From an uncultured Gammaproteobacteria bacterium (lineage in GTDB: Bacteria > Patescibacteriota > Patescibacteriia > UBA9934): 64,000 bases of DNA. Position 1 is the stretch's first letter. Each line of letters begins with the position of its first letter. The stretch lies in contig CAZKGL010000001.1 in assembly GCA_964552565.1 (NCBI GenBank), positions 237,113-301,112 on the forward strand, given 5' to 3'. Positions 1,026 through 35,787 of the stretch are shown here, piece by piece. Position numbers and translations under genes: made by a program. Below the pieces are notes generated by a model. That model was not told the origin of the DNA and made no database searches. It saw nothing but the letters and a program-made list of their open reading frames with translations.

Positions 1026-1265
1026 ACACAATTGCCGCGCCTGCCGCCACGTCGCGCTTGACCGGGGGCGGGGAAGGCGTTCCCTGGAAGGTGAGGGGCT
1101 GCCAGCCCCATGTCCTTCCGCATAGGACGTCGCGCCTTGTCCGGCGAGCTGGCAGCGCCCTCTTCACCCCCTCGGCCCCAGGGATCACGGTTCCTGGGGT
1201 TTCCGATTGATTTTTTCTTGGATTTGCGCTACCATCGACGGGAAAACCCGTGCCATTCGTACCAC

Positions 1266-1339
1266 TCCGGGATCGTCTAACGGCAGGACAGCGGCCTTTG
1301 AAGCCGTGAATCTTGGTTCGATTCCAAGTCCCGGAACCA
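1266..1339 (+). tRNA. tRNA-Gln (anticodon TTG), CCA encoded
   Basis: Hand-folded cloverleaf: acceptor TCCGGGA/TCCCGGA, T-arm GGTTCGATTCC, anticodon loop CTTTGAA. Confidence 0.8.
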
Positions 1340-1345
1340 CAAGAG

Positions 1346-1384
1346 CCCCCGCAGCAAATGCTGGGGTTTTTGTGTATTTTTTGG
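1346..1384 (+). terminator. Intrinsic terminator after tRNA-Gln
   Basis: Hairpin CCCCGCAGC-aaat-GCTGGGG followed by TTTTTGTGTATTTTTT. Confidence 0.5.
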
Positions 1385-1393
1385 CCTATTTCA

Positions 1394-1422
1394 TTGACAA
1401 AACGTCATTTTTGTGCTATATT
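1394..1422 (+). promoter_or_regulatory. Sigma70-like promoter TTGACA-17-TATATT with TGc extended -10
   Basis: ttcaTTGACAaaacgtcatttttgtgcTATATT. A near-identical module occurs downstream of tRNA-Glu at 51016-51044. Confidence 0.5.
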
Positions 1423-1537
1423 GGATGGTTCCTTTCGGTGAAAAAGAGTCCCTCCAGAGGCCTGGAAATGTGCATTGCAGCGGCATATTTCCGGACCCAT
1501 GGAGGGAGTCTCCAGCTGTTCACCCCCGGAGGAACGG

Positions 1538-2392
1538 ATGAATTTCCACACGCACCCGAACGCCATCGAGGGCGCCGCCGCCCGCAGCTTCGGACGCCGC
1601 GCGTCGCCCCTGGCGTCGCAGCAGGCCGCCTCGCAGCCCTCGGGCAGCAAGCTCGTGTTCCGTGGCGGCAAGTTCGTCGACGCGGACGCGGCGCCGCCGA
1701 TGCCGGTGCCGCGCCGCACGACGAGCAAGCCCGTCGCCGCGAAGCCCGCGCCGAAGATCTCGCCCCCGCCGACCGTCATCGTCCCCGAGTCCGCCCCCGT
1801 GGTGGTCGCGAAGGTCGAGCCGGAGCCGGTGATCGACGTCGCGGCGGAGCTCGCGCGCATCGAGGCCGATCGCGCCACCGCGGAGCGGCGGAAGCGGGAG
1901 GAGCAGCGGCGGCGCGAGGAAGCGCACGCCGCGGCCGAGCAGGCCCGTCGTGACGAAGCCGAGCGCGAGGCCCGTCGCGCGGCCGAGGCCCTGCAGGTCC
2001 GACTGCGCGAGGAGGAGCGCCGCGCCGCGCAGGCCAAGGCCGAGAAGGAGGCGCAGCGCAAGCGCGACGAGGACCGCCGCAAGGAGCGCGCCCTGGCGCA
2101 GTCGCGGGCCCGCGAGGCCGAGCAGCGCAGCCGCGACCTGAACGGGTGTGTCAAGAACGCCCGGGTCGGCGTCCCGGCCGCGAAGGCGGGCGACGAGCGG
2201 CCGATCGGCGAGCGCATCGCGGCGCTCACCGACGCGGCGATCGCGCAGGCCTACGCGAACGAGCGCGAGCTCAAGTGGCGGTTCTCGGACCGCGCCAAGC
2301 TCGTGAACGCCGCGAAGAACCCGGCCGGCGCCAAGCACGTCGTCGCGTTCGTCGAGGCCTGCGAGCGCATCATGCGCCAGGCCATATCCTAG
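1538..2392 (+). CDS. Hypothetical protein with a charged Arg/Glu/Ala-rich coiled-coil segment
   Basis: GGAGG RBS 5 nt upstream of ATG 1538. In frame with track ORF 1475..2392. The C-terminal 80 aa are of normal composition. Confidence 0.45.
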   Translation: MNFHTHPNAIEGAAARSFGRRASPLASQQAASQPSGSKLVFRGGKFVDADAAPPMPVPRRTTSKPVAAKPAPKISPPPTVIVPESAPVVVAKVEPEPVIDVAAELARIEADRATAERRKREEQRRREEAHAAAEQARRDEAEREARRAAEALQVRLREEERRAAQAKAEKEAQRKRDEDRRKERALAQSRAREAEQRSRDLNGCVKNARVGVPAAKAGDERPIGERIAALTDAAIAQAYANERELKWRFSDRAKLVNAAKNPAGAKHVVAFVEACERIMRQAIS

Positions 2393-2525
2393 TACCCGGG
2401 AACGCCCGGGGAGCGGAACGTGAGGGGTCGGACGAGTCTCATCTCGCCCGGCCCCTTCACTGTTTTTTTTCATTGAAACGATGCGCCGCCCGTCTGGAAT
2501 CCAGCGGGCGGCGGAGGTTGTGCGG

Positions 2526-3060
2526 TCACGCGGTGGCGAGCGCGAGTACTTCTTCGCGCGTGGTCTCGATCCGTTCGAACGGGCACTTGGCGCGGATGAG
2601 GTGCAGCGTGACGCCACGGGCGATCTCCTCCGCACCGCTGAGGCGTCGCGCCGCGCACTCGCGCAGATGCAGCAGCAGGACATGCGCGCGCAGCACATCG
2701 AGGTTGCGCAGGAACGTCCAGACGTCGACCACCTCTGCGTAGGGCATGAGCGCGAGCACCATGTTACGGTGCATCGCGTCCTCCCAGCGGTCGAGGAGCG
2801 ACTCGTCCCACAGCCCGGCGTCGACGGCGACCGCCGCTTCGATGAGGAGCGCCACGAGACGCTGGTCGTGGACCGCCAGGAGGCTCTCGCGGAACGCCGC
2901 GAGATCGAACGGCGGCAGGGGTTCTCCTGGTCCGACGCGGGTCACGGCCTCGCGCAGCGATGCGCCGTCGCGCAGGCATCGGGTGCCGGTCGCGAGCGCC
3001 GCGTCGGTGCACGGGCACCCGCAGGTGATGCGGTGCGAACAGGTGGTCAGTGCGGTCATC
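2526..3060 (-). CDS. Hypothetical protein with N-terminal Cys cluster (CSHRITCGCPC)
   Basis: Minus-strand ORF with a GGAGG RBS 5 nt before the MTALTT start. Composition is more protein-like than the overlapping plus-strand ORF 2481..3098. A convergent bidirectional terminator hairpin lies at 2491-2521. Confidence 0.45.
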
Positions 3061-3176
3061 GGGGCCTCCGGGGGTGTGGAACGAACGGCGTACCCTAGCA
3101 AAAAAACCGCCCGATGTCAACGCAGCAACGGGCGTGTTGCCGAGGCGTCGGCTCGGCGGTACCATGGCCAGTACGT

Positions 3177-4094
3177 ATGCAGATGGCCAAGGTCGTCCTC
3201 ATCCAGGAACCGAACCGCCGCAAGGCCGTGCGCGAGGCCGTGCACCAGCTTGGTGACGCGTGGATCGATAAGGTCAAGTCCAGCCGGCGCATCATCGTCA
3301 AGGTGAACCTCGTGCACCACGAGACGCAGCTCGCGTCGACCCACGTCGATGCGGTGCGCGGGCTCCTCGACGAGATCCGCCAGCACAGCCGCGTCGACGT
3401 ATTCGTCGGCGACGCGTCGTACCACGGGACAAAGGCGGCGTTTGCGAATTTCGGTTACGAGCGTCTCATCGAGGAGTACGAGCACACGATCCTCGTCGAC
3501 CTCAACGACGACGATACCGTGCTCGGCCACAGCGTCCGCGCGGACGGCAGCCTGAACGAGATCCGCCGCTCGAGGCTCGCGAGCGAGTGCGACCTCCGTA
3601 TCTCGTTGACGCCCATGAAGACGCACCGCGACGCCGGCATCTCGCTGTCGGTGAAAAACTGGACGCTCGGCACATGGGTCGTCCCACCGCGCGTCGGGAC
3701 GCACGGAAGGGTGTGGGCGCGCTGGCCATGGTTGCACAACGAGGGCATGAAGGCGTTCCATGAGACGGTGACGACGCTGTATGAGGAGTTGCCGTGCCAC
3801 GTCGGCATCGTAGACGGGACCATTGCGATGGAAGGCGACGGGCCGACGCGCGGCGATGCCGTGCAGATGGGCGTCGTGCTCGCCGGCCTCGACGCGGTCG
3901 CGGTCGACGCGGTGGGGGCCACGCTCATGGGGTTCGATCCCGGGGAGATCGGCTATCTGGTAAAATGTAGCGAACGAGGGCTCGGCGTCGCGGAGATGAG
4001 CCGCATCGATGCCCCGCCGCTCGTCCTGGAGCAGTTGCGCCGTTCGTTTTTGCGCCCGCCGGAGTTGGCGGAGAAATTAACTGCTTGGAAATAA
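3177..4094 (+). CDS. DUF362 domain protein
   Basis: MAKVVLIQ start and the THxxAGISLSVKN and DGTIAMEGDGP motifs are typical of DUF362. Confidence 0.6.
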   Translation: MQMAKVVLIQEPNRRKAVREAVHQLGDAWIDKVKSSRRIIVKVNLVHHETQLASTHVDAVRGLLDEIRQHSRVDVFVGDASYHGTKAAFANFGYERLIEEYEHTILVDLNDDDTVLGHSVRADGSLNEIRRSRLASECDLRISLTPMKTHRDAGISLSVKNWTLGTWVVPPRVGTHGRVWARWPWLHNEGMKAFHETVTTLYEELPCHVGIVDGTIAMEGDGPTRGDAVQMGVVLAGLDAVAVDAVGATLMGFDPGEIGYLVKCSERGLGVAEMSRIDAPPLVLEQLRRSFLRPPELAEKLTAWK

Positions 4095-4098
4095 CCGT

Positions 4099-4578
4099 AT
4101 GTCTACCTGCATCTTTCCCGGTCGCTTCCAACCGTTCCACGAAGGGCACCTGATGGTCGTCCAGGGGATGGTGAAATCGTGCGGCAACGCCTGCATCGTC
4201 ATTTGTGACGAAGGAAAGGCCGGAGCGGACGCCCCGTTTACGGTCGAGCAGCGCCGCGAGATGATCAGCGCCGCGCTCCTTGCGAAAGACATCATGGACG
4301 CGACCATCGTCGTCGTGAAAGACGGCGGCGAAGACGCCCAGTGGGCGCACCGCGTGCTGGATGAGTGCGGCAACCCGGAGGGTGCGACGGTGTGGAGCGG
4401 ACGCGAAGAGGTCCGCGCGCTGTTCGAAGGCATGGGGGTCGCGACGAAAAAGGTCGTTCCGGTGCCGGGTATTTCGAGCGAGACGATCCGCGAGCAGATG
4501 GTGGCGAACAACCCCGAGTTCCGCAAGCATATCCCGAGCGGCGCTATCGATGTGGTGATGGATGCCATCAAAAAGTAA
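4099..4578 (+). CDS. nadM: Nicotinamide-nucleotide adenylyltransferase, archaeal/NadM type (cytidylyltransferase fold)
   Basis: The N-terminal FPGRFQPFHEGH motif is the (H/T)xGH nucleotidyltransferase signature of NadM-type NMNAT. Confidence 0.7.
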   Translation: MSTCIFPGRFQPFHEGHLMVVQGMVKSCGNACIVICDEGKAGADAPFTVEQRREMISAALLAKDIMDATIVVVKDGGEDAQWAHRVLDECGNPEGATVWSGREEVRALFEGMGVATKKVVPVPGISSETIREQMVANNPEFRKHIPSGAIDVVMDAIKK

Positions 4579-4650
4579 GTCATCACGCCCATCCTGAGGC
4601 GAAGCCGAAGGATCTCTTGCGAGAGATCCCTCGCTCGGCCCGGGATGGTT
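4579..4650 (+). terminator. Terminator-like repeat element of the 'catcctgagg' family
   Basis: cccatcctgaggcgaagccgaaggatctcttgcgagagatccctcgctcggcccgggatgg followed by TTTTTTGTTTG. Related copies occur at 32390-32440 and 45716-45767. Confidence 0.5.
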
Positions 4651-4656
4651 TTTTGT

Positions 4657-4685
4657 TTGACTTTTGCTTTTGTTTCTGCTAACTT
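4657..4685 (+). promoter_or_regulatory. Promoter TTGACT-17-TAACTT, with TGc before the -10
   Basis: gtTTGACTtttgcttttgtttctgcTAACTT. Confidence 0.4.
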
Positions 4686-4746
4686 TTCGCCGCCGGTTTC
4701 ACTACTCCGGACAACCCAAACGGCCATTGGCCACTGAGAGGACTGT

Positions 4747-5964
4747 TTGCCCATCGACCCCCTCGACCAGCGCTGGACCACCCCCGTCCGCACCACCCTC
4801 GTGCTCGCGGGCGGCGCGCGCACCTGCACGTGCATCGGTCTCACCGACAAGCCGCTCGCCTTCATCGAGGTCGACAGCCCGGACGGCAAGGGCGGCTACC
4901 CGCTCATCGTCGACTGGCGGATGACCAAGGCCGCGTTCGCGCGCGGCGACCACCACATGGTGTTCGCCGGGTACGACAACGTCTACGGCGCCGAACGCGC
5001 GCAGAACGGCCACGCGACGACGTGGGTCGCGCACCAACTCAAGGTGCACGGCGACTGTCGCGAGCTCTTCGCGGGCAGCCTCCTCGAGGCCTACGGCCGT
5101 CCCATCGACGACGCCGAGCGCTTCTACGCGCTGCAGGAGGAGTACGCGCGGGTCTTCGCCGACGGCGTGGATCCGAAGGACTACCCGGTGCACAACGCGG
5201 ACTTCGCCCGTTCGGTCGCGCTCATCCGCACCGCCCGCGGCGTGAAGGGGAGCCGCAAGTACCCCGGTACGGCCTCCGCGCTGCGGCGCATGACGCGCCA
5301 GCTCGTGGCGCTCCACGAGGACAAGGAGCGCGTCGTGCCGCTCGGCGCGGTGCTCGCGAGCTACATCGAGGCGGTGCTGTCGCGCATCATCCGCCACCGC
5401 GCCGCCATCGAGCAGCTCATGGCGCTCGAGCCGAAGAAGCTCCTGACGCCCAACCGTCCGGATCGGCTCAAGGAGCTGCGCGAGGCGCTCAAGGAGATCC
5501 TCGTCGCCCGCCCGTTCCGCCGGAGCCGCGACATGATCGTCGAGGAGCTCGACCAGGTCACCGAGCTCGTCATCTACGCGCTCCACAACCCGAGCGACGA
5601 GGTGCGCACGCACGTCGTCAACCTCTCCCGCAGCATCCTCGGGACGGTGCGCGACGCGCTCCTCCTGCGGGAGCGGCAGTACGAGATCGAGCGTATCCTG
5701 AAGCGCGTCGCGGTCTGGGAACGCTGGGACCAGCGTCCGACGGAGGCGCAGTGGCTCCGGCTGCACCGGGAGATCGACGACGTCCTCGACCGCACGGGGG
5801 CGGGCCTCGGCCACGGTTTCCGCCGCAACCGGGTGCACGAGATCCGCGCGTACCTCGAAGAGGCCCGTTCGGTCTCGCGTACGGTGCGGCAGTTCGAGCC
5901 CGAGCCGTCCCGGCAGCTCGCCGCCATCGGTGCCAAGCTCCGCGCCGTTTCGAAGCTCATCTAG
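4747..5964 (+). CDS. Hypothetical protein (405 aa)
   Basis: Long ORF with normal composition and a TTG start preceded by GAGAGGA. The start is uncertain. The antisense ORF 4702..5838 is Arg-rich junk. Confidence 0.5.
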   Translation: MPIDPLDQRWTTPVRTTLVLAGGARTCTCIGLTDKPLAFIEVDSPDGKGGYPLIVDWRMTKAAFARGDHHMVFAGYDNVYGAERAQNGHATTWVAHQLKVHGDCRELFAGSLLEAYGRPIDDAERFYALQEEYARVFADGVDPKDYPVHNADFARSVALIRTARGVKGSRKYPGTASALRRMTRQLVALHEDKERVVPLGAVLASYIEAVLSRIIRHRAAIEQLMALEPKKLLTPNRPDRLKELREALKEILVARPFRRSRDMIVEELDQVTELVIYALHNPSDEVRTHVVNLSRSILGTVRDALLLRERQYEIERILKRVAVWERWDQRPTEAQWLRLHREIDDVLDRTGAGLGHGFRRNRVHEIRAYLEEARSVSRTVRQFEPEPSRQLAAIGAKLRAVSKLI

Positions 5965-24890: not shown

Positions 24891-26027
24891 ATGAACTACG
24901 CTGAACGATCCCTCGAAGCACACGCGACGCACCGCGGAAAGTGGACGATTGCGAGCAAGATGCCGCTCGAAACAAAGGATGATTTGTCGATCGCCTACAC
25001 GCCCGGCGTCGCGGAGCCGTGCCGCGCGATTGCCGCAGACCCCGCGAAGGCCATGACGCTCACTATGAAAGGGAATGCGGTTGCGGTGGTGAGCGACGGT
25101 TCGTCCGTGCTCGGGCTCGGCAACATCGGTCCCATGGCCGGGCTTCCGGTGATGGAAGGGAAGGCGGTGTTGTATAAAAAATATGCGGATATCGACGCGG
25201 TGCCGATCGTGCTTGCGTCGCAGGATGTGGACGACATCGTCCACGCCGTTGCAATGATTGCGCCGACGTTCGGCGGCATCCACCTCGAGGACATCGCCGC
25301 GCCCGCGTGTTTTGCCGTCGAGCGCCGGCTGTCGGAGATGCTCGACATCCCGGTGATGCATGACGACCAGCACGCGACCGCGATCGTGACCGTCGCCGCG
25401 CTCACGAACGCGCTCAAGGTCGTCGGCAAGGAGATGGCCGGCGTGCGCATCGTCGTGAACGGCGCGGGCGCAGCTGGCATTGCCATCACGAAGCTCCTCC
25501 TTGCCGCCAGTGCGACGCAACTCGTGCTTGTCGATTCGAAAGGCATTATCGCCACCGGCCGTGAAGGGATGAATGCGGAGAAAGAAGAGCTCGCGGCGCG
25601 GATCAATCCGTCTGCTGCGACAGGGACGCTTGCCGACGCGTTGGCGGGAGCCGACGTCTTCATCGGCGTCAGCAAGCCGAACCTCGTGACGCAAGAGATG
25701 GTGCGTTCGATGCGTCCGTCGCCGATCGTCTTCGCGCTCGCGAATCCCGATCCGGAGATCCGTCCCGAGGATGCAAAGGCTGCGGGCGCCGCCGTCGTCG
25801 CGACCGGCCGGTCGGACTTCCCGAACCAAGTGAACAACGTGCTCGTGTACCCCGGGCTGTTCCGCGGCTTGCTCGATACGCATCGGAAGCTCGACGACAC
25901 GGCACGCATCGCCGCAGCGCGGGCGCTTGCCGCGATGGTCGCCGAACCGACGGCGGAGCAGATCATTCCGTCTATTTTGGATGTGAACCCCGCGCCGGTT
26001 ATCGCCGACGCGATCCGCGGGCTATGA
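24891..26027 (+). CDS. NAD(P)-dependent malic enzyme (short, MaeB N-domain type)
   Basis: Malic enzyme N-terminal and NAD-binding domains (AYTPGVA, VNGAGAAG). Start chosen at MNYAERSLEAHATHRGK. Confidence 0.8.
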   Translation: MNYAERSLEAHATHRGKWTIASKMPLETKDDLSIAYTPGVAEPCRAIAADPAKAMTLTMKGNAVAVVSDGSSVLGLGNIGPMAGLPVMEGKAVLYKKYADIDAVPIVLASQDVDDIVHAVAMIAPTFGGIHLEDIAAPACFAVERRLSEMLDIPVMHDDQHATAIVTVAALTNALKVVGKEMAGVRIVVNGAGAAGIAITKLLLAASATQLVLVDSKGIIATGREGMNAEKEELAARINPSAATGTLADALAGADVFIGVSKPNLVTQEMVRSMRPSPIVFALANPDPEIRPEDAKAAGAAVVATGRSDFPNQVNNVLVYPGLFRGLLDTHRKLDDTARIAAARALAAMVAEPTAEQIIPSILDVNPAPVIADAIRGL

Positions 26028-26632
26028 ACTACATGTACCGTAGCTCGTATTCCGCAAACCGCGGCGGCCGAGGTCCGTCGCGGTTCGGTGCGATTGCGCG
26101 CATCGCCGCGCTCGTGCTGCTCGCCGTCGGCATCTTCGTGCTGGCGGTGTGGTGGTTCCGCCGCGACGCGTCCGACGCCGAGACCGCAGGTGCGGAATCG
26201 CCGGTGGAGGACGGCGCCGACGCGACGGTTGCAGAAGATGGTAATGCACTTCCAAATGGGAATGCATTACCATTTGCGGCCGCGTCCACTGTCGCGTTGA
26301 CCGCACGCGGGGGGAGCGGCGCAGCGGGCACGGCGATGCGGACGCAAGAGTCCGGCGCGTTCCGCATCACCATCGTGGCCGACATGCCTTCGATCGATAG
26401 CGCCACGACGACGTATGAAGCGTGGTACGTGAAGCCGGGCATCACGGATTTTTTCTCGCTGGGTGAATTGTTCCCGCGCGACGACGGCAAGTGGGGCTTG
26501 GTGTGGGAGACGACCGACGCCCTTGCGCGCACCGATATTTTGGAGTTCAATCGCATCCTTGTTACCCGGGAAGCGCGGGACGGAAATCCTGCGGTATCCG
26601 CGGACCAAGTGTTGGATGGGACGTTTGAATGA
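26024..26632 (+). CDS. Hypothetical membrane-anchored protein
   Basis: ATGA start/stop overlap with the upstream gene. N-terminal TM (IARIAALVLLAVGIFVLAVWWF). Confidence 0.5.
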   Translation: MNYMYRSSYSANRGGRGPSRFGAIARIAALVLLAVGIFVLAVWWFRRDASDAETAGAESPVEDGADATVAEDGNALPNGNALPFAAASTVALTARGGSGAAGTAMRTQESGAFRITIVADMPSIDSATTTYEAWYVKPGITDFFSLGELFPRDDGKWGLVWETTDALARTDILEFNRILVTREARDGNPAVSADQVLDGTFE

Positions 26633-26733: not shown

Positions 26734-28041
26734 ATGAAAATCGCAATTATTGGAACCGGCTATGTGGGACTCGTGTCCGGCGCGGATTTCGCGTCGCGGG
26801 GGTTTGACGTCGTCTGCGTTGACATTGACGCCGGACGTATCGCGGGACTGCAGCAGGGCGTCATGCCGTTTTTCGAAGAGGGGCTCGAGCGGTTGGTGAC
26901 GGACGGCGTTGCGGCGGGGACGCTGTCGTTTACGACGGACGGCGCGACGGCGATCGTCGGTGCCGACGTCGTCATGACCGCGGTTGGGACGCCGCTTGGC
27001 GCCGACGGACGCGCGGACCTTTCTGCGGTGTACGACGTTGCCGCGCAGTTTGGCGCATCGGTCACGGGCCGCGCCGTCCTCGTCAACAAGTCAACGGTCC
27101 CGGTCGGCACCGCGGAAGCGTGCGAGGCGATCGTCCGCGGCGCGCTCGCAAAACGCGGCGTCTCGTTCGATGTCGCCGTGGTGTCGAACCCGGAGTTTTT
27201 GAGCCAGGGGACTGCGGTACGCGACACGGCGCGACCGTCGCGCATCATCGTCGGTGCGGAAGAGGATTGGGCGCGCGAGGTCATGCGGGAGCTCAACGCA
27301 TCCTTCATCGATGCGGGCGTGCCGTACCGCGAGATGTCGCGCCGCAGCGCGGAGATGGCGAAGGTCGCGGCGAACGCGTTCCTTGCGACGAAAATCAGTT
27401 TCATTAATGAGATCGCGAACCTCTGCGAGCGGACCGGCGCCCGCGTCGACGAGGTCGCGGAGAGCATGGGCCTCGACAGCCGTATCGGCCCCGCATTTCT
27501 CCGTGCCGGCCTCGGCTACGGCGGCGGGTGCATCCCGAAGGACGCCGCGGCGCTCATTGCCGCCGGCCGCGACGTTGGCTACGACTTTCGCATCCTTCCG
27601 GCGGTCGAGGAAGTCAACGCGCTCCAGCGCGAACTGTTGTACGCCAAGTTGTGCGAGATGCTTCCGGAACGCAAAGGGACGCGCGTCGCGGTTTGGGGGC
27701 TGGCGTTCAAGCCGGGAACCGACGACCTGCGCCTTGCGCCGGCGCTTTCGCTTCTCGCCCACCTTCTCGACGACGGCGTCGACGTCGTCGCGTTCGACCC
27801 CGCCGCGGCGGCGAATGCGGCGAAGCGTTTCCCGTCCGTCACGTTTGTCGACGACCCGATGGCCGCGCTTGCGGGCGCCGATGCGCTCGCCATCTGTACG
27901 GAGTGGAATATGTTCTCTTCCTCTACGCTCTCCGACATCCGCGATGCGTTGCGCGGCGACATTGTGCTCGACGGCCGCGGAGTTTTTCGCACGCAAAAAC
28001 CGCCGCAAGGACTGCGCTATTGGAGCATCGGATGTGGATAA
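26734..28041 (+). CDS. ugd: UDP-glucose 6-dehydrogenase
   Basis: MKIAIIGTGYVGLV Rossmann motif and catalytic Cys region (GYGGGCIPKD). Confidence 0.9.
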   Translation: MKIAIIGTGYVGLVSGADFASRGFDVVCVDIDAGRIAGLQQGVMPFFEEGLERLVTDGVAAGTLSFTTDGATAIVGADVVMTAVGTPLGADGRADLSAVYDVAAQFGASVTGRAVLVNKSTVPVGTAEACEAIVRGALAKRGVSFDVAVVSNPEFLSQGTAVRDTARPSRIIVGAEEDWAREVMRELNASFIDAGVPYREMSRRSAEMAKVAANAFLATKISFINEIANLCERTGARVDEVAESMGLDSRIGPAFLRAGLGYGGGCIPKDAAALIAAGRDVGYDFRILPAVEEVNALQRELLYAKLCEMLPERKGTRVAVWGLAFKPGTDDLRLAPALSLLAHLLDDGVDVVAFDPAAAANAAKRFPSVTFVDDPMAALAGADALAICTEWNMFSSSTLSDIRDALRGDIVLDGRGVFRTQKPPQGLRYWSIGCG

Positions 28042-28113
28042 CTAACGTTGAAAAACGAGCAGGGCATTCGGAATAGAGGTATCATATGTCCAAGTAATAA
28101 ATGCCTTATTCCT

Positions 28114-31100
28114 ATGCTCGCACGTTTGTTGACGTTTCGGCAGGCCCGTCCTTTGGCCTACCTCCTCGCCATTCTTGGCGCAGGTATCGTGTTTCTCCTC
28201 ACCGCGCAAAGCGCGTTTGCGGCGAACACTATCAGCACGAGTAAGTACGAAGAGTCGGGTACCGCGGACGGTACGCTCGACCGCATCCGCTTCGCGATGG
28301 ACGAGAACGTCACGGCGTGCACGTACGAGTCGGGCGACTGGAGTATCGACGCAGCGGGTACCGTTGGCCTGACCGCGATCACCGCGGTCTCCTGCACGAC
28401 GCTCGACGTGAACCTCGACATCACCGCGACATTTACCGCGAACATCACGGGCGGCGCAGTGAACCCGCAGATTGACTATAACAACCAGGGTCAGCCAAAC
28501 AGCATCTACCTCACGAGCGGCGCGATGACGAACAAGTTGAACCAGGCGATCACGGACGGCGCCAAGCCGCAAGCGAACGCGTTCACCTATGCCGACAACG
28601 ACGGCGACGGGAAGATTGACCGCGTGACCATCACCTGGTCGGAAGAAGTAGCGGCAGGATCTGTCATTGCGAAAAACGACCTCACCTTCCAGAACGTCGG
28701 TGACTTCACGGGCATTGCATTCGGTACGGATAACACCGACCTCATCACCGGCTCGACGTCAACAACACTCCTCGACCTCACGGCAGGTGCCGGCGCCGCA
28801 GAAGCGACTGCGCTGGACACGGCCGATTCCGGCAGTATCCGTATCGACTCGCAGAACGCCTGGTCCATTACTGACGGTACGAACGCGAACACCACGCTCG
28901 GTTCGCAGTCGGCGATTGCGACATATACTGACGGTGCCAAACCGGTCATCTCGACATTCGACTATTCGGACGCGGACGATGACGGCAAGGTCGATACCAT
29001 CACCGTCAACTACACGGAAACGGTTACGGCCGCATCGGTGCTCGCGGCAAACGACCTTACGCTCTCCGCGGTCGGCGACTTTACCTCGCTCGCATTCGGC
29101 GCCAACTCCACGGACCTTATTACGGGTTCGGTGACCTCTACCGCAATTACGCTCGGCACCGAGTCGACGGTAAAGGATACCGAAGACAACGCCGGCACGC
29201 TCGCCATCACGTCGCAAAATCTCTTCTCGCTGACGGACGGTACCAACACGAACGCCGACCTCGAGGCGCAGGCGCAGGCGACTGCGGTGGACGAGGCGAA
29301 GCCGGTCATCACCGCCTTCGACTACCAGGACGCGGACGATGACGGCAAGATCGACACGATCGTTACGAACTTCTCTGAAGAAGTCGTCGCGGGTAGTGTG
29401 TTGCGTCCGGCAGACTTGACGTTCTCGGCGGTCGGCGACTTTACGGCCGCGGCATTCGGCGCGAACACGACCGATGCGATCACCGGTACGGTCACCTCCG
29501 CGACGCTGACGCTCGGTACGGAATCCACGGCGAAGGACACTGCGGAAGGCGCCGGAACCATCGCCATTACCGCGCAAAACAACTTCTCCCTTGTCGACAC
29601 CGCGACGGCCGCGAACACGAACAACACCCTCGATGCACAGAGTTCGAGCGCGACGTTCGTGGACGAAGCCGCTCCGCAAATTGCGACGGTTACTTACTCT
29701 GATGCGGACGGCGATGCCAAAGTCGACACGCTAACCCTCGCCTACACCGAAACCGTGACTGCCGCGAGCGTCCTTGGCCAAAACGACCTCACGCTCTCCG
29801 CAGTCGGCGACTTCACGGCGCTCGCGTTCAGCAACTCGGCGACGGACCTTATTACCGGTTCGGTCTCGAGCACGGCGATCACCATGGGTACCGAATCGTC
29901 CGCGCAGGATACGGGTGACGATAGCCCGGCGCTCGCGATGACGAGCCAGAACCTCTTCTCCCTTACGGACGGCACGAACGCGAACGCCGAACTCGAGGCG
30001 CAGATGTCGAGCAGCGCGACGGTCGCCGACGGCGCACGTCCGATGCTCCTCACCACGTCGCCGGTAAACGGCGCCACGGGCGTCTCGGCCACGGCGAACA
30101 CGGTGCTCACGTTCTCCGAACCGATCAGCACCGGCTCGTTCACCTGGACCTCGACCGGCGGCCCTGCAATGGCAGACTTCGCGGCGGCGTGGACGGTTGG
30201 CGACACGGTCGTTACGCTGAACCCGCCGGGCAACATGGGCGGCGGCCTCCATACGGTCGACGTCACCGCAGCGCCGGACACTGGGAGTAACACGTATAAC
30301 GGCGCGGTCGCAGCGATCGCCGATCCATTCACTTTCACGGTGTCGACAAGCGGCACCACGAGCACGGGCACCTCGAGCACGGTTGGTGGCTCGGCAAACT
30401 ACTCGGTCCTCGTCGAGGCGCCGAACGGCGGCGAGACGCTGACTCCGGGCGAGAGCTACGACATCCGCTGGTCGACCGACGGCGGTTCGACAATGAGCGC
30501 GATGAACATTGCATACTCGACGAACAACGGCGACAGCTACACGGCGATCGTCTCTGACACGGCAAACGACGGCAGCTACACCTGGACCGTGCCGGACATC
30601 GATTCCGACCAGGTCTTCATCCGCATCCAGGGCACCGACCTTGCGACCGTCCTCGCGTACGACCGCTCGGACAGCGAGTTCACCATCGGTACCGTCGCGG
30701 CATCCGATGACGAGGATACGACGGACGAAGATGAGGACACGTCGAGCGACGACTCGGATACGGCGGAAACGTCGGATGATGTCACGGTCCCGTCGAGCGG
30801 TGAAACCGGCGCGTCGCCGGTGACCGGCGAGACGGAAGAGATCTCCGCGGTCGAGGCCGGCATGTACGTGCGCAGCGTGTACTTCGACACCGTCTACTAC
30901 CTGGAAGGCCAGGATGACGGTTCGATCGTCCGCCGCCCGTTCATGGACTCCCAGACCTACTTCACCTACTTCGACAGCTGGGATGAAGTGGAGACGGTGA
31001 CCGACGCCACGCTTCCGACCTTGACCCTCGGCGCCCCGATGCTTCCGCAGGCCGGCGTGGTCCTGGTCAAGATCCAGAGCGTCGCCAAGGTCTACGCCAT

Positions 31101-31293
31101 CGAAGGCGACGGCGAGCTCCGCTGGGTCACCAGCGAGTCGGTCGCCGAGGAGATCTACGGCGAAGACTGGGCCGACTACGTCATCGACATCCCGGACACG
31201 CTCTGGCCGCGGTTCGACCAGGGTGATGACATCGACTCGGATGAAGGCTTTGACACGAGCAACATGAAGACCCGCATGGAGGTGAACTCCTAG
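28114..31293 (+). CDS. Giant secreted surface protein with four tandem ~122-aa repeats, an Ig-like region, a Kre9/KNH-like beta-sandwich, an acidic linker and a conserved C-terminal domain
   Basis: Signal peptide MLARLL...SAFA. Repeats begin AFTYADNDGDGKIDRVTITWSEEV, AKPVISTFDYSDADDDGKVDTITVNYTETV, AKPVITAFDYQDADDDGKIDTIVTNFSEEV and AAPQIATVTYSDADGDAKVDTLTLAYTETV. The C-terminal module is shared with the 31389 gene. Confidence 0.8.
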   Translation: MLARLLTFRQARPLAYLLAILGAGIVFLLTAQSAFAANTISTSKYEESGTADGTLDRIRFAMDENVTACTYESGDWSIDAAGTVGLTAITAVSCTTLDVNLDITATFTANITGGAVNPQIDYNNQGQPNSIYLTSGAMTNKLNQAITDGAKPQANAFTYADNDGDGKIDRVTITWSEEVAAGSVIAKNDLTFQNVGDFTGIAFGTDNTDLITGSTSTTLLDLTAGAGAAEATALDTADSGSIRIDSQNAWSITDGTNANTTLGSQSAIATYTDGAKPVISTFDYSDADDDGKVDTITVNYTETVTAASVLAANDLTLSAVGDFTSLAFGANSTDLITGSVTSTAITLGTESTVKDTEDNAGTLAITSQNLFSLTDGTNTNADLEAQAQATAVDEAKPVITAFDYQDADDDGKIDTIVTNFSEEVVAGSVLRPADLTFSAVGDFTAAAFGANTTDAITGTVTSATLTLGTESTAKDTAEGAGTIAITAQNNFSLVDTATAANTNNTLDAQSSSATFVDEAAPQIATVTYSDADGDAKVDTLTLAYTETVTAASVLGQNDLTLSAVGDFTALAFSNSATDLITGSVSSTAITMGTESSAQDTGDDSPALAMTSQNLFSLTDGTNANAELEAQMSSSATVADGARPMLLTTSPVNGATGVSATANTVLTFSEPISTGSFTWTSTGGPAMADFAAAWTVGDTVVTLNPPGNMGGGLHTVDVTAAPDTGSNTYNGAVAAIADPFTFTVSTSGTTSTGTSSTVGGSANYSVLVEAPNGGETLTPGESYDIRWSTDGGSTMSAMNIAYSTNNGDSYTAIVSDTANDGSYTWTVPDIDSDQVFIRIQGTDLATVLAYDRSDSEFTIGTVAASDDEDTTDEDEDTSSDDSDTAETSDDVTVPSSGETGASPVTGETEEISAVEAGMYVRSVYFDTVYYLEGQDDGSIVRRPFMDSQTYFTYFDSWDEVETVTDATLPTLTLGAPMLPQAGVVLVKIQSVAKVYAIEGDGELRWVTSESVAEEIYGEDWADYVIDIPDTLWPRFDQGDDIDSDEGFDTSNMKTRMEVNS
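28560..30040 (+). repeat. Intragenic tandem repeats (4 copies, period about 366-375 bp) in the surface protein gene
   Basis: Visible periodicity of DxDxDGKxD-containing units at the protein level. Confidence 0.7.
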
Positions 31294-31388
31294 CGGCCAC
31301 AACCAAGAGACGGGGGACGCGTCCCCCGTCTCTTGTGTTTTTGATCGCGTTCAGGTAAAAAATCACCGTCATTTTTCTTTCTCACCTT

Positions 31389-32375
31389 ATGATGTCGCGT
31401 TGGATACTCTTGGGAGGAGTTATTGCGCTGTCATTCGCGCTTGTGCCGCACGCGTTCGCCGCAGACACGGTGGACCATGACACCTCGGTCGACCTCATCG
31501 GCAACGATGCGAGCGGCCATACCACCCAGGTGGAGGGTGAGCTCGCGAAGCCGTTCACGGTCGTCTCCTCAATCTCATTCCGGACGTTCAAGGACGCCAC
31601 GGTGACGGTGTTCGCACCGGCCACGGGCGACGCGTTCGTCCCGGGCACGTCGCATGACATCCGTTGGGAGTGGGACAGTCAGGCGATGTCCGCGGTCAAC
31701 CTTTTCTACTCGAAAGATGGCGGCGCGACGTACACGGCTATCGCCACGAACGTCCCGAACCGCGGCTACTACGCGTGGAACGTCCCGGATGTCGTGACGG
31801 AGCACGCGAAGGTCCTGGTGCAGGGCACGGACGGCCTCGACGTCTTCGTGGAGGACGTTTCCGACGAGTTCACGATCCTCGGCACGGTCGAGTACGGCAC
31901 GTCGCCGGTCGACGGCACGACCGAGGAGCTCGCCGACGTCGATGCGGGACAAGTCGTCATGAGCCCGTCGTTCAGCGAAACGTATTACGTCGCCGAAGAC
32001 GGGACGCGCCGGCCGTTCATCGACACGCAGAGCATGTACACCTACATCCGCCATGCCGATGACGTCGCCATGGTGACCGACGCGACGGTCGCCTCGCTCG
32101 CGCTCGGCGCGCCGATGCTTCCGAAGTCCGGGACCGTGCTCGTCAAAGAGGCCATCTCGCCGGATGTGTACCTTGTGACGGGCGATGTCGAATCGCCGGT
32201 CATTCGCCACATCACGAGCGAACGGATCGCCGCCGAGATGTTCGGCGAGGATTGGGCCGACTACGTCATCGATGTACCGCCGACGGTCCTCGTCCGCTAC
32301 GCGCGCGGCGAAGCCATCGATCGCGCGATCATGGTGGATACCTCCGGCATGCGGAAACGAGAGACATTGCAGTAA
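31389..32375 (+). CDS. Secreted protein, paralog of the C-terminal half of the giant surface protein
   Basis: Signal peptide MMSRWILLGGVIALSFALVPHAFA. Shares the Kre9-like domain and the C-terminal domain (FGEDWADYVIDVPPTVL versus YGEDWADYVIDIPDTLW). Confidence 0.8.
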   Translation: MMSRWILLGGVIALSFALVPHAFAADTVDHDTSVDLIGNDASGHTTQVEGELAKPFTVVSSISFRTFKDATVTVFAPATGDAFVPGTSHDIRWEWDSQAMSAVNLFYSKDGGATYTAIATNVPNRGYYAWNVPDVVTEHAKVLVQGTDGLDVFVEDVSDEFTILGTVEYGTSPVDGTTEELADVDAGQVVMSPSFSETYYVAEDGTRRPFIDTQSMYTYIRHADDVAMVTDATVASLALGAPMLPKSGTVLVKEAISPDVYLVTGDVESPVIRHITSERIAAEMFGEDWADYVIDVPPTVLVRYARGEAIDRAIMVDTSGMRKRETLQ

Positions 32376-32389
32376 CGCTCCGAGCAACA

Positions 32390-32440
32390 CACCCATCCTG
32401 AGGCCGTCGGCTGACGCCTCCTCAGGATGGGTGTTTGGTG
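32390..32440 (+). terminator. Intrinsic terminator (14-bp stem CACCCATCCTGAGG/CCTCAGGATGGGTG), member of the 'catcctgagg' repeat family
   Basis: Hairpin followed by TTTGG. Shares the catcctgagg core with 4579 and 45716. Confidence 0.5.
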
Positions 32441-32447
32441 CTATACT
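32439..32447 (+). promoter_or_regulatory. Extended -10 TGcTATACT only 9 nt before the LOG start codon (leaderless-type)
   Basis: tgcTATACTggagcaagtATG. Confidence 0.4.
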
Positions 32448-32456
32448 GGAGCAAGT

Positions 32457-33212
32457 ATGGACATCTTCACGCAGCGCAAGAACGGCGCGACCGGGGTGAA
32501 AGACCCGTCGCGTGTTTGCCGCATCCCGCTGACGCCGGAGGAGCGCGCCATGTGCGCGACGCCGGACCAGGCGCCGAAGATGTCGGACATCACGTGGCGC
32601 ATCTTCCGCATCATGGCGGAGTTCGTCGAGGGCTTTCAGTTCTTGTCGACCACGACGCGCGAAGTCACGGTGTTCGGGTCCGCGCGCCTGCCGCCGACGA
32701 ACCGTTGGTACCAAGAGGCGGTGAAGTTCGGGCGGTTGCTTGGCGAGCACGGGTTCAGCGTCATCACCGGCGGCGGTCCGGGCATCATGGAGGGCGCGAA
32801 CAAGGGCGTATACGAGGTCGGCGGGGAATCCATCGGCCTGAATATCCAGTTGCCGCACGAACAGCGCATCAACCCGTACGTCACCCGGTCGCGCGCGTTT
32901 TACTACTTCTTCACGCGCAAGGTCATGCTCGCGGCGAGCGCCCAGGCCTACGTCTATTTCCCCGGCGGGTTCGGCACGCTTGACGAGCTGTTTGAAATTT
33001 TGACGCTCATCCAGACCAAGAAGTCCGAGAAGATCGCCGTCGTGCTCGTCGGCCATGCGTTTTGGGATCCGATGGTCGAATGGATCCGCGAGACCATGCT
33101 CGGCACCTTTGATGCGATTTCCGCCGAGGACCTGCATCTGTTCACCGTGGTCGATACCGCGGAGGAGGCCTTCGAACTTGTGAAGACCTCCCAGGAACGG
33201 TCATTCTTCTGA
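32457..33212 (+). CDS. LOG family protein (cytokinin riboside 5'-monophosphate phosphoribohydrolase-like, TIGR00730)
   Basis: TVFGSARL...GGGPGIMEGANKG...PGGFGTLDELFE motifs. Confidence 0.85.
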   Translation: MDIFTQRKNGATGVKDPSRVCRIPLTPEERAMCATPDQAPKMSDITWRIFRIMAEFVEGFQFLSTTTREVTVFGSARLPPTNRWYQEAVKFGRLLGEHGFSVITGGGPGIMEGANKGVYEVGGESIGLNIQLPHEQRINPYVTRSRAFYYFFTRKVMLAASAQAYVYFPGGFGTLDELFEILTLIQTKKSEKIAVVLVGHAFWDPMVEWIRETMLGTFDAISAEDLHLFTVVDTAEEAFELVKTSQERSFF

Positions 33213-33216
33213 TGCT

Positions 33217-34788
33217 ATGGCAGAACGCTTGCGCGCCCTGGCCCACGTGTTTGAAAAGCCCGACGGCTTTTCCGCGGCGGTCGGCGAAGAAGTCATCGAA
33301 GTCAGCGTGCCGGTGAGCACGGCTGCCGTGTTATACGAGAAGGTCCGCAACACGCTCGAATACCAGGAGGAGCATCTCCTCCGGCGCGGCGCCATCGAAC
33401 GGTTCTTCCAGCGCCACCTCGGAGAGCAGACCGCGCTGTCGTCGCTGTCGGGCGACCTCTTGCGGGAGCTCGTGTGGGCGAAGTACCTTCCGAACAAGGC
33501 GGTGCCGACGCACCTTGCGGACAAGGTCGCCGCGGTCGTCGCGAAGTACGACACGCTATTCAAGGCGGCAGAAGGGAAAGGCGATGCGCGGGAGCGCATT
33601 TCGGGCTTCGTGCTCGACACGCTTGCGACCGAAGTCGAGTACACCATCGCCCCGCCGCACCACGACGAGGCGTTGGCGAGTTACATGTACGAGGAGATGC
33701 GCGAGCGGACGGAATGGGATCCGGCGTACGGACTTTCGGACGAGGCGAAGGACCTCCGGCTGTTTATTGCCGTGCACCGCACGCTCCTCAAGTCGAACCA
33801 AGAAACGCTCCGGTTCCGCGTCCTGTCGCTGTACTACCCCGACTGGCCGGGCGCGAGCACGCCGGAACGTATCAACGAGATCGCGGCCAACCTGGTGAAG
33901 GTCGCGGACATGGTGGACGGCGAAAGCATGCATCCGTTGACCGACCGCGTGTCGCGCATGCTGCGCCGACGCGCAGGCGTGTTCCGCGTCGTCCGCGACG
34001 TCATCGACCATCACCCGGAGCACTTCCACGAACTCCTCGAAGACCCGGATGCGCTCGACCGGCAGGTCGGGGAAGCGCTGCACCACCGCACGGACCTCTT
34101 CCGCACCAGGCTCCGCCGTACCGTCGTCCGCGCCATCCTTTTCCTGTTCATCACGAAGATGCTGTTGGCGCTTGTCATGGAAGTCCCGTACGACCTCCTC
34201 GTCGTCGGCGAACTGGCGATGGGCCCGCTCCTCATTAACATCCTGTTCCCGCCGTTCTTCCTCGCGCTCCTCAGCCTGACGGTGACGATCCCGGAGAAGC
34301 GCAACACGGACGACTACCGGGCCGCCGTGCGCGCACTCGTCGTCCATGCCGACCATCCGGTCCTGAACCTCCGCATCAAGAAGGAGACGCGAAGCGCGTG
34401 GGCGACGATCTTTAACGTGCTTTACGCCGGGACGTTCATCTTCGTGTACGGCGTGATTGCGAGTTTCCTCCATAACGTCGGTTTCCATGCGCTGTCCATC
34501 GGGCTGTTCCTGTTTTTCCTCTCGCTCGTCACGTTCTTCGGCATCCGCATCCGCAGTTCCACCCGCGATATCGTCGCGCTCGACGCGCGCAGCGGCATCA
34601 TCGGCACGGCGTTCGACATCTTCATGCTCCCGATCGTCCGCGCCGGCTCCTGGCTTTCGGTGAAGGTCGCGAAGATCAACGTGTTCATCTTCTTCTTCGA
34701 CTTCATCATCGAGGCGCCGTTCAAGGTCGCGATCCGATTCATGGAAAGCTGGCTGAACTTCGTCCGCGAAAAGAAGGAAGAAATTTAA
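33217..34788 (+). CDS. Hypothetical membrane protein (about 300-aa soluble N-domain plus C-terminal TM bundle)
   Basis: ORF of 523 aa with normal composition and several C-terminal hydrophobic helices. Confidence 0.55.
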   Translation: MAERLRALAHVFEKPDGFSAAVGEEVIEVSVPVSTAAVLYEKVRNTLEYQEEHLLRRGAIERFFQRHLGEQTALSSLSGDLLRELVWAKYLPNKAVPTHLADKVAAVVAKYDTLFKAAEGKGDARERISGFVLDTLATEVEYTIAPPHHDEALASYMYEEMRERTEWDPAYGLSDEAKDLRLFIAVHRTLLKSNQETLRFRVLSLYYPDWPGASTPERINEIAANLVKVADMVDGESMHPLTDRVSRMLRRRAGVFRVVRDVIDHHPEHFHELLEDPDALDRQVGEALHHRTDLFRTRLRRTVVRAILFLFITKMLLALVMEVPYDLLVVGELAMGPLLINILFPPFFLALLSLTVTIPEKRNTDDYRAAVRALVVHADHPVLNLRIKKETRSAWATIFNVLYAGTFIFVYGVIASFLHNVGFHALSIGLFLFFLSLVTFFGIRIRSSTRDIVALDARSGIIGTAFDIFMLPIVRAGSWLSVKVAKINVFIFFFDFIIEAPFKVAIRFMESWLNFVREKKEEI

Positions 34789-34797
34789 CCCACGCCC

Positions 34798-35787
34798 GTG
34801 ACGCGGAGGACCGCAGCACTTCGGATCGTCTTTACGCTGACGCTCGCCCTCTCGGCCTTCGCGTCAACCGTGTTCGTATTGACGCGCCGGGTGGTTATAC
34901 CGGATGCGGCGACCGAGTTTGGCATCACGTTTTCTCCCCGTACCGCGTCGTACTACGGCGTCGACCCCCGCGCGGCATACACCGCGGCGCTCGACGAACT
35001 CGACGTGCGGCTCGTCCGCCTGCCCGTGTATTGGGACGACGTCGAGCCGTCCGACGACGCGTACGCATTCACGGACACGGATTGGTACATGGACGAGGCG
35101 GCGGCGCGCGGGGCGAAGGTGACGCTCGTCATCGGCATGAAGGTTCCGCGCTGGCCCGAGTGCCACGTGCCGGACTGGGTGCCGAGTGATGCGCCGCGCG
35201 AAGCGCTCCTGGATTACCTCGAAGCCGCCGTCGTGCGCTACGCGCACCATCCGGCATTGTATCGTTGGCAGGTCGAGAACGAGGTGCGGTTCCCGTTTGG
35301 GGAATGCCCCGCGCCCGACCTCGCGTTGTTCGCGGACGAGGTCGCGCTCGTCCGGAGTCTCGATGCCGATACGCCGATCCAGCTCACGGTGAGCGGCGAG
35401 CAAGAGGCATGGGCGGCGACCGCGGAGGACGCGGACGTGCTCGGTGCGAGCCTCTACCGATTTGCCTGGAACTCGACGTTCGGGCTCGTCGTCTTCCCGC
35501 ACCCGCCGTCGTATTACCGGTTGCAGTGGCGTACGCTTGGCGACCGCGTCGACACCGCGGTCATCTCCGAGCTGCAGGCGGAACCGTGGTTTGACGGCGA
35601 TGTCCCTGCGGACGTTGCGGAGCGGTATGCGCTCTTCCCTGAAGAGCGGCTGCGCGACCATGCGCGGTTTGCCGAGGCGACGGAGTTCCCCGAGGTGTAC
35701 CTCTGGGGGGCCGAATGGTGGTATGCTTTGCGTATCGCGGGCGAACCGCGGCTTTGGGATACGGCAAGGGATATTTTGCAGGAGTAA
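34798..35787 (+). CDS. Putative glycoside hydrolase (TIM barrel, GH5-like) with N-terminal membrane anchor
   Basis: WQVENE motif (catalytic acid/base NE(P)-like), GTG start, TM segment IVFTLTLALSAFASTVFVL. Confidence 0.5.
   Translation: MTRRTAALRIVFTLTLALSAFASTVFVLTRRVVIPDAATEFGITFSPRTASYYGVDPRAAYTAALDELDVRLVRLPVYWDDVEPSDDAYAFTDTDWYMDEAAARGAKVTLVIGMKVPRWPECHVPDWVPSDAPREALLDYLEAAVVRYAHHPALYRWQVENEVRFPFGECPAPDLALFADEVALVRSLDADTPIQLTVSGEQEAWAATAEDADVLGASLYRFAWNSTFGLVVFPHPPSYYRLQWRTLGDRVDTAVISELQAEPWFDGDVPADVAERYALFPEERLRDHARFAEATEFPEVYLWGAEWWYALRIAGEPRLWDTARDILQE

Follow-up and report, generated by a model that had tools for sequence, protein, structure and literature searches.

The locus considered here raises a simple question: what are two neighbouring secreted proteins, which have their last two domains in common, doing outside the cell, and what keeps them there? 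They are encoded in the DNA of a member of Candidatus Uhrbacteria, an ultra-small, uncultivated bacterium from groundwater, in a stretch of 64,000 nucleotides (positions 237,113 to 301,112 of contig CAZKGL010000001.1, assembly GCA_964552565.1; hereafter the window, with positions counted from its first letter), where three co-directional genes, ugd, gene A and gene B, were recognized from the list of open reading frames and their translations. The answer proposed here is that A and B are surface proteins associated with the wall or the surface layer (S-layer), and that their common C-terminal domain (CTD) acts as a non-covalent envelope-retention module, a reading drawn by analogy to which we give about an even chance. 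What is new is the CTD itself, a widespread, confidently folded domain family outside existing models and specific to one lineage of the candidate phyla radiation (CPR), while the kind of system, a swappable surface module, is already known. The two genes and their parts are the following.

28114..31293, + strand: gene A, secreted protein of 1059 amino acids (aa) from ATG 28114 (open reading frame and translation)
28114..28221, + strand: signal peptide of A, aa 1-36, ending ...AQSAFA before ANT (read from the sequence)
28222..28551, + strand: R0, degenerate fifth repeat copy of A, aa 37-146, without the acidic loop
28552-28926, 28927-29286, 29287-29658 and 29659-30030, + strand: R1-R4, tandem repeats of 120-125 aa, each opening with Y-x-D-x-D-x-D-G/A-K-x-D
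30031..30339, + strand: canonical Big_5 domain (SbsA-type, bacterial immunoglobulin (Ig)-like) of A, aa 640-742 (PF13205)
30421..30630, + strand: Kre9/KNH-like Ig sandwich of A, aa 770-839 (PF10342)
30664..30813, + strand: poly-acidic Asp/Ser/Thr/Glu linker of A, aa 851-900 (by composition)
30814..31290, + strand: CTD of A, aa 901-1059 (159 aa), a conserved domain outside existing library models
31389..32375, + strand: gene B, secreted paralogue of 328 aa (open reading frame and translation)
31389-31460, + strand: signal peptide of B, aa 1-24 (read from the sequence)
31617-31808, + strand: Kre9-like sandwich of B, aa 77-140 (sub-threshold PF10342)
31902-32372, + strand: CTD of B, aa 172-328 (homology to the CTD of A)

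Both proteins begin with a Sec-type signal peptide, read directly from the sequence, that ends in AFA before an Ala, and N-termini equivalent to that of A are found in its orthologues L002 and L005 (L-numbers denote CTD loci from genomes, P-numbers retrieved proteins). BLASTP paired residues 71-324 of B with residues 764-1054 of A (42% identity, E 1e-62), which takes in both the CTD and the Kre9-like domain; the acidic linker (24% D, 18% S, 18% T and 12% E), present in A only, shows up as a 45-residue gap in the alignment. Residues 770-839 of A score 26.8 bits against the Kre9_KNH cut-off of 24.6 and belong to that family, while the corresponding match in B, at 19.1 bits, falls under the same cut-off. 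Thus, the anatomy that an initial annotation of this DNA had given A, namely tandem repeats, an SbsA-type Ig segment, a Kre9/KNH sandwich, an acidic linker and a C-terminal module, the last two domains being common to a 328-aa downstream paralogue with its own signal peptide, was borne out at each testable point. The four repeats of about 122 aa with D-x-D-x-DGK-x-D cores are indeed present, and they are preceded by a fifth, degenerate copy (R0) that the annotation had missed.

The CTD carries the argument. No Pfam or NCBIfam model matched A 901-1059 or B 172-328 at E<=0.1; 28 diverse CTDs scanned against Pfam at E<=10 gave singleton noise, with no family matched by more than one member, and PDB sequence and profile searches with the CTD were empty. 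Hence the structural, rather than enzymatic, character first attributed to the shared module meets no contradiction in the Pfam, NCBIfam and PDB profile searches. The same 28 sequences, which share less than 60% mutual identity and are 48-59% identical to the CTD of A, align with 10 invariant and 13 nearly invariant columns, and the motifs of the domain are SPVTGE, TVYY, RRPF, GxPMLPKxG, VLVK, WADYVID and MKTR. AlphaFold2 modelled mature B (43 sequences, model m69b0ff0346b5) with a mean predicted local distance difference test (pLDDT) score of 88.7, the N-terminal segment being of low confidence and the blocks from residue 50 on reaching 92-98. In this model the secondary structure of the CTD is beta-beta-beta-alpha-beta-alpha twice over, at a pLDDT of about 96-98, and hhalign placed the two halves in register over 56 columns (P 0.004, with a probability of only 8%), which suggests an internal duplication. 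The CTD is thus predicted to be an autonomous, compact alpha/beta domain of about 155 residues.

An exhaustive HMMER search of 1.84 billion representatives with the CTD returned 4425 clusters at E<=1e-3, of which 3471 pass E<=1e-10 and 341 pass E<=1e-30. Among the best matches, the domain lies at most 10 residues from the C-terminus in 135 of 143 occurrences (94%), and a crude test found a signal-peptide-like N-terminus in 103 of the 121 full-length (Met-starting) proteins. Other arrangements occur as well: L052 (2607-6809) carries a CTD-like module directly after the signal peptide, at residues 53-196 of 1401, P0078 has the module at both ends of one protein, and P0095, P0099, P0127, P0167 and P0178 extend beyond the CTD by 50-100 residues made up of thrombospondin-type-3-like DxDGDGxxDxxE repeats of calcium-binding type. 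A further half-unit-like stretch may follow the module of L052.

A pattern-limited scan of species genomes in GTDB yielded 53 CTD loci, and the credibly named records among them are Uhrbacteria or Patescibacteria. According to Pfam, the partners of the CTD at these loci are Big_5 (17), Peptidase_S8 (9), Kre9_KNH (7) and fn3 (4), with single cases of a DUF5122 propeller, DUF285, CarboxypepD_reg, FG-GAP, Flg_new_2, CARDB, a GDSL lipase, LTD and PKD. To judge by the majority consensus of the alignment, the CTD of most members comes after a Kre9-like segment; in the S8 protease fusions the CTD is attached directly. Several single metagenome-assembled genomes (MAGs) of about 1 Mb hold at least 3-5 CTD copies each, often in tandem. 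A role of the CTD as a protease pro-domain or chaperone was rejected, as the domain also occurs on non-enzymes.

A separate observation concerns the protease fusions. Most Peptidase_S8-CTD loci hold a second, divergent CTD gene (31-37% identity) at a constant distance of about 6 kb upstream (L014, L019, L041, L042, L043, L045 and L047, at about 1850-3060 in each; the main gene of L047 lacks the subtilase motif start), which indicates another conserved gene block of the family.

These properties can be assembled into a model. A and B are members of a large paralogous Sec-secreted family of Candidatus Uhrbacteria (Patescibacteria, or CPR), each member of which combines a variable "working" part with the conserved terminal module, often within a cassette in which Big_5 and a Kre9-like Ig domain are followed by a flexible linker and then by the CTD. 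The working part of A would be a rod of six Big_5-type Ig-like domains, four of which (R1-R4) have a DxDxDG-type loop at their start and are predicted to bind Ca2+ and so to stiffen a very acidic array, while B would be a minimal member made of a short N-terminal segment and the cassette. The CTD would hold these proteins non-covalently on the envelope of the cell itself, by way of peptidoglycan, a secondary wall polymer, the S-layer lattice or a membrane-bound receptor. A would be the candidate major surface or S-layer-type protein, with an AT-rich leader and a strong terminator of its own, and B, together with the protease, lipase and propeller fusions found elsewhere, would belong to the envelope-associated accessory proteins.

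The role of anchor is proposed because the proteins are secreted by Sec, because one conserved, autonomous terminal module is reused on unrelated functional parts, proteases included, in multiple copies per small genome and independently of its position, and because it follows a flexible acidic or Ser/Thr linker, a combination also found in anchor domains such as SLH and CWB2. Moreover, its N-terminal placement in L052 and its presence at both ends of P0078 argue against a purely C-terminal export signal. In cryogenic transmission electron microscopy, CPR cells show an S-layer and are devoid of an outer membrane (bioRxiv 10.1101/2020.05.14.094862). The typical S-layer lattice protein is bipartite: an anchor domain is combined with an Ig-like array, and the former recurs in many further proteins that the genome encodes (bioRxiv 10.1101/2025.04.02.646754). 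A has the features expected of an S-layer protein, being Sec-secreted, acidic, low in Cys and bipartite with an anchor and surface domains, although such features are necessary and unspecific; the mature protein has a pI of about 4.05, a net charge of -123, a composition rich in T, A, D and S (15.6% Thr, 12.5% Ala) and 2 Cys. The initial description of A and B as cell-surface, S-layer or adhesin components is therefore strengthened by the family-wide behaviour of the CTD, whereas Ca2+ binding, surface retention, the ligand and lattice formation are what we infer beyond it.

The array of A deserves closer consideration. R1-R4 occupy residues 147-271, 272-391, 392-515 and 516-639, are 48-70% identical in pairs, and present D-x-D-x-D-x-K-x-D at residues 161, 286, 406 and 530, that is, at spacings of 125, 120 and 124. 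R0 is 25-30% identical to R1-R4 and was matched by the iterated repeat profile with an independent E-value of 5.9e-5; a weak first copy is also present in the orthologues L002 and L005. Residues 640-742 match PF13205 at E 1.3e-6 (29.5 bits, above the 23.6 cut-off) and constitute a genuine Big_5 domain. The Pfam Big_5 model does not detect R1-R4, which are matched, at independent E-values of 3e-8 to 4e-6 and over profile positions 1-108 of 112, by a jackhmmer profile seeded with the Big_5 domain of A and iterated over family members. By this profile homology R1-R4 appear to be divergent Big_5-type Ig-like modules, an affinity that the initial annotation had overlooked, and protein A reads as six Big_5-like modules in a row (R0, R1-R4 and the canonical Big_5) with a Kre9/Fn3-like sandwich behind them. 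The first strand-loop of R1-R4 appears to have become Y-x-D-x-D-x-DGK-x-D, a putative Ca2+ loop of the DxDxDG type; this motif, with its downstream acidic residue, is present at 161, 286 and 406, and the copy at 530 has Ala for Gly.

R1-R4 match the repeat profile at E 1e-57 to 1e-63, values that are circular because the profile was built from the same four copies. Independent support comes from the pairwise identity of 48-70% and from matches of the repeat profile in other proteins, namely L050 (E 4.5e-44), L002, L003, L005 and P0044, the copy number being five in L002 and L005, one in L050 and at least two in L003. Furthermore, 47 of 142 newly retrieved proteins, drawn from the 150 best CTD matches, carry 1-5 copies. 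The nucleotide sequences of the copies agree in only about 72% per column, and for this reason Tandem Repeats Finder reported no long-period array in gene A; this identity points to an old duplication and not to an assembly artefact. Recent repeat expansion or mis-assembly was accordingly rejected, the copies being old and the architecture common to the orthologues. Nothing beyond noise (E>=0.4) came from searching the PDB, by sequence and by profile, with A, B, the CTD or the repeat.

A word-indexed homology search with the repeat profile found only P0044 (NCBI RLP12_03700, "Ekhidna sp.", on a 1995-bp contig), a partial protein of 163 aa labelled Bacteroidota with two tandem copies, 58% identical to the Uhrbacteria repeat. 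Either this short contig was mis-binned or the module has spread laterally.

Several points weigh against envelope retention as the function of the CTD and against the role proposed for A. Surface retention, lattice formation and Ca2+ binding rest on sequence and analogy. The CTD has no match to the Pfam wall-anchor models (SLH, CWB2, LysM, SH3b, choline-binding, WxL, SLAP and others), so that with no known wall-binding family behind it the anchor role is argued from an analogy of behaviour and not from homology. The domain is strongly acidic (median pI 4.4), whereas many wall-polymer-binding modules are basic, and C-terminal modules on secreted enzymes can equally be substrate- or host-binding. 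Finally, an AlphaFold2 model of R2-R3 from a 6-row alignment reached a pLDDT of 44.8 only, and the Ig fold of the repeats rests on sequence profiles. A bolder form of the proposal, in which the CTD would represent the first known case of a new Uhrbacteria-specific envelope anchor with a fold unlike SLH, CWB2, LysM or SH3b, and A the Ca2+-dependent Ig-array lattice protein of the CPR S-layer, is on balance improbable.

One alternative is that the CTD targets the surface of a host cell or an environmental polymer, as a carbohydrate-binding module (CBM) or adhesin tip would, so that A and B would be episymbiont adhesins and the protease and lipase fusions would be delivered to the target. CPR bacteria are commonly episymbionts attached to hosts (bioRxiv 10.1101/2020.05.14.094862). 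The S8 protease, GDSL lipase and Ig-array partners also occur with C-terminal CBMs in secreted enzymes, and the domain, besides being acidic, has conserved aromatic residues of the kind frequent in sugar-binding sites (Y28, W119 and Y122 invariant, F43 and Y94 nearly invariant, in the 28 aligned sequences). However, the CTD is conserved across divergent genomes and paralogues while the remainder of the protein varies, which fits a ligand on the cell itself better than a diversity of hosts, and as no other anchor is recognizable in these proteins, nothing would tie an adhesin to its own cell if the C-terminus were its binding tip. We therefore regard host targeting as unlikely.

A second alternative makes the CTD a protein-protein assembly module, either self-associating into a lattice or docking to a scaffold or receptor in the manner of cohesin and dockerin. 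A candidate receptor is encoded upstream of ugd.

26024..26632, + strand: RskA_C-like gene, single-pass membrane protein of 202 aa with a weak RskA_C-like (anti-sigma-K C-terminal) ectodomain

This product matches Pfam RskA_C at E 1.2e-5 (26.1 bits, under the 29.4 cut-off) and the NCBIfam anti-sigma model at E 7.5e-6, also under the cut-off, and no sigma-factor gene stands next to it in the window. It belongs to a recurrent block consisting of uvrD, (malic enzyme), RskA_C-like membrane protein, (ugd) and CTD protein(s), found in L002, L006, L012, L018, L037 and L050; in all these syntenic loci the RskA_C-like gene is directly upstream of the (ugd-)CTD-protein genes. That this adjacency is kept in every syntenic locus, despite UvrD proteins only about 57% identical to that of the window, speaks for a docking function, as does the fact that the CTD is acidic, well folded and apparently duplicated internally, like many docking modules. 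The adjacency is nevertheless confined to a single conserved block that includes the housekeeping gene uvrD, and the RskA-like gene does not accompany the other CTD loci, at least 40 in number. The RskA_C-like protein could interact with the CTD proteins, or its position could reflect nothing more than a conserved order of genes, and an assembly module seems to us rather doubtful.

A third alternative, that A and B are ordinary soluble secreted proteins whose neighbourhood, ugd included, is coincidental, depends on what surrounds gene A.

26734..28041, + strand: ugd, UDP-glucose 6-dehydrogenase family, 435 aa, with three UDPG_MGDP_dh Pfam domains
28042..28113, + strand: AT-rich spacer of 72 bases upstream of A, candidate promoter region (read from the sequence)
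31304..31335, + strand: intrinsic-terminator-like hairpin with a 14-bp stem, 9 G-C pairs, then a T-run, TGTTTTTGAT, 11 bases after the stop codon of A

The ugd product contains all three UDPG_MGDP_dh domains practically complete (PF03721 1-187/187, PF00984 1-93/94 and PF03720 1-102/103, with E 2.5e-55, 9.3e-36 and 1.6e-26) and exceeds the cut-off of the nucleotide-sugar dehydrogenase model TIGR03026 (402.7 bits against 189.8). Its identification as TuaD was rejected, since it scores 438.4 bits against the cut-off of 700 of the teichuronic-acid equivalog NF047673. The gene lies directly upstream of an A-type gene in four of the eight syntenic Uhrbacteria loci (the window, L002, L037 and L050), is absent at L006, L012 and L018, and the contig of L001 does not reach that region. 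The coupling of ugd to a glycan or uronic acid surface chemistry, put forward in the initial annotation, thus keeps the adjacency in half of these loci in its favour; against it stand the TuaD score, the AT-rich spacer between ugd and gene A, and the acidic CTD. A domain this acidic is not expected to bind a uronic-acid polymer by simple electrostatics, and with the synteny only partial and the TuaD score under its cut-off, the link between ugd and the surface proteins is no more than a weak hint.

As for transcription, a scan for consensus sigma-70 promoters gave nothing upstream of A or B, its single match lying inside gene A at chance level; a promoter belonging to A in the 28042-28113 spacer is possible. 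The spacer before A and the hairpin after its stop codon suggest that A is transcribed alone and B separately, as two transcription units. In this part of the window almost all the genes run in the same direction, and this, together with the absence of ugd at three of the eight syntenic loci, is what could be said for a coincidental neighbourhood. On the other hand, the size, conservation and modular reuse of the CTD family demand a common function, and soluble, unattached proteins are very unlikely. Least probable of all is a sorting or export signal read, and perhaps removed, by dedicated machinery in the manner of type IX CTDs or of sortase and exosortase substrates, as the terminal position in 94% of occurrences on otherwise unrelated secreted proteins and the conserved ...MKTR... 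motif near the very end are outweighed by the N-terminal and double placements in L052 and P0078, by C-termini (...NMKTRMEVNS in A and ...GMRKRETLQ in B, and likewise family-wide in the alignment) that have no hydrophobic stretch and no LPXTG- or PEP-like signal, by an apparently duplicated alpha/beta domain of about 155 residues unlike short or beta-sandwich sorting signals, and by CPR cells having no outer membrane (bioRxiv 10.1101/2020.05.14.094862) and hence no second membrane to cross.

Returning to the locus itself, protein B is identical to NCBI HYS28_02705 from a Candidatus Uhrbacteria MAG (assembly GCA_016177675.1), and the full 1059-aa protein A was not returned by any of the database searches made. 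In that assembly, contig JACOUU010000026.1 (L054, bases 1-4892) begins inside gene A, which is therefore represented by a C-terminal fragment of 263 aa (HYS28_02700, P0002), while the window contains the complete gene. Downstream of B, positions 33217-34788 encode a membrane protein of 523 aa with no Pfam or NCBIfam match that is conserved at 62-71% identity in L001 and L002; there too it is kept downstream of the CTD genes, together with a LOG-family gene (32427-33212 in the window) and a GH42/GH35-like gene (34798-35787).

Uhrbacteria-type CTD genes, with the uvrD/RskA-like synteny, are also present in many Third Party Annotation (TPA) MAG records that bear the title "uncultured Gammaproteobacteria bacterium" (L002, L004, L006, L007, L009, L010, L014, L016, L018, L019, L021-L025 and others), one of them being a 1.0-Mb chromosome (OZ246408.1). 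The titles of these CTD-bearing records look like placeholder or wrong taxonomy.

A search of the literature found no paper that names the proteins which build or decorate the CPR/Patescibacteria envelope, and nothing specific on surface or anchor proteins of Uhrbacteria or Patescibacteria. In this context, the CTD profile alone would define the likely "surfaceome" of Uhrbacteria, and candidates for envelope-bound proteases and for the S-layer protein can be picked out with it; as a small domain, the CTD also lends itself to expression and to tests for a ligand. An anchoring CTD would bring a new type of module to the swappable surface anchors of bacteria, whereas a CTD that binds host surfaces would lead to the machinery by which an episymbiont attaches. 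Should the reading of a new anchor and a lattice protein be true, both the S-layer protein and its anchor would have been named for a major uncultivated lineage.

The closest parallels among known systems are the SLH and CWB2 families, exemplified by Sap, EA1 and the BSLs of B. anthracis and by SlpA and the Cwp paralogues, such as the protease Cwp84, of C. difficile. As in these, one terminal module is found on many Sec-secreted paralogues, at either end of the protein and joined to swappable parts such as Ig-like arrays, proteases and other enzymes, and a major bipartite protein is accompanied by accessory proteins. There are also differences: the CTD has no sequence match to either family or to any Pfam family, it is acidic, and its lineage is the Patescibacteria. 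Its predicted fold, a duplicated beta-beta-beta-alpha-beta-alpha unit, is unlike the helical trimer of SLH and the fold of CWB2.

The other parts of A have relatives as well. Variable-copy tandem Ig arrays are typical of S-layer and surface proteins with Big_5/SbsA-type domains (PF13205), and A follows this pattern with one canonical Big_5 and five more copies picked up by the Big_5-seeded profile, but R1-R4 depart from the usual Big_5 in replacing the start of the domain with the acidic Y-x-D-x-D-x-DGK-x-D loop. The DxDxDG motif binds calcium, and such loops form the motif class of Rigden and Galperin, found in EF-hand-like, dockerin and thrombospondin type 3 contexts. R1-R3 resemble them in having D-x-D-x-D-G and then another Asp three residues on, unlike R4, where Ala replaces Gly (DADGDAKVD), and R0, which is without the motif. 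Lastly, Kre9/KNH (PF10342) is the domain of a fungal family of cell-wall glucan synthesis; here it is a spacer-like Ig domain placed regularly before the CTD, and nothing suggests a role in glucan synthesis for the Kre9-like domain of A and B.

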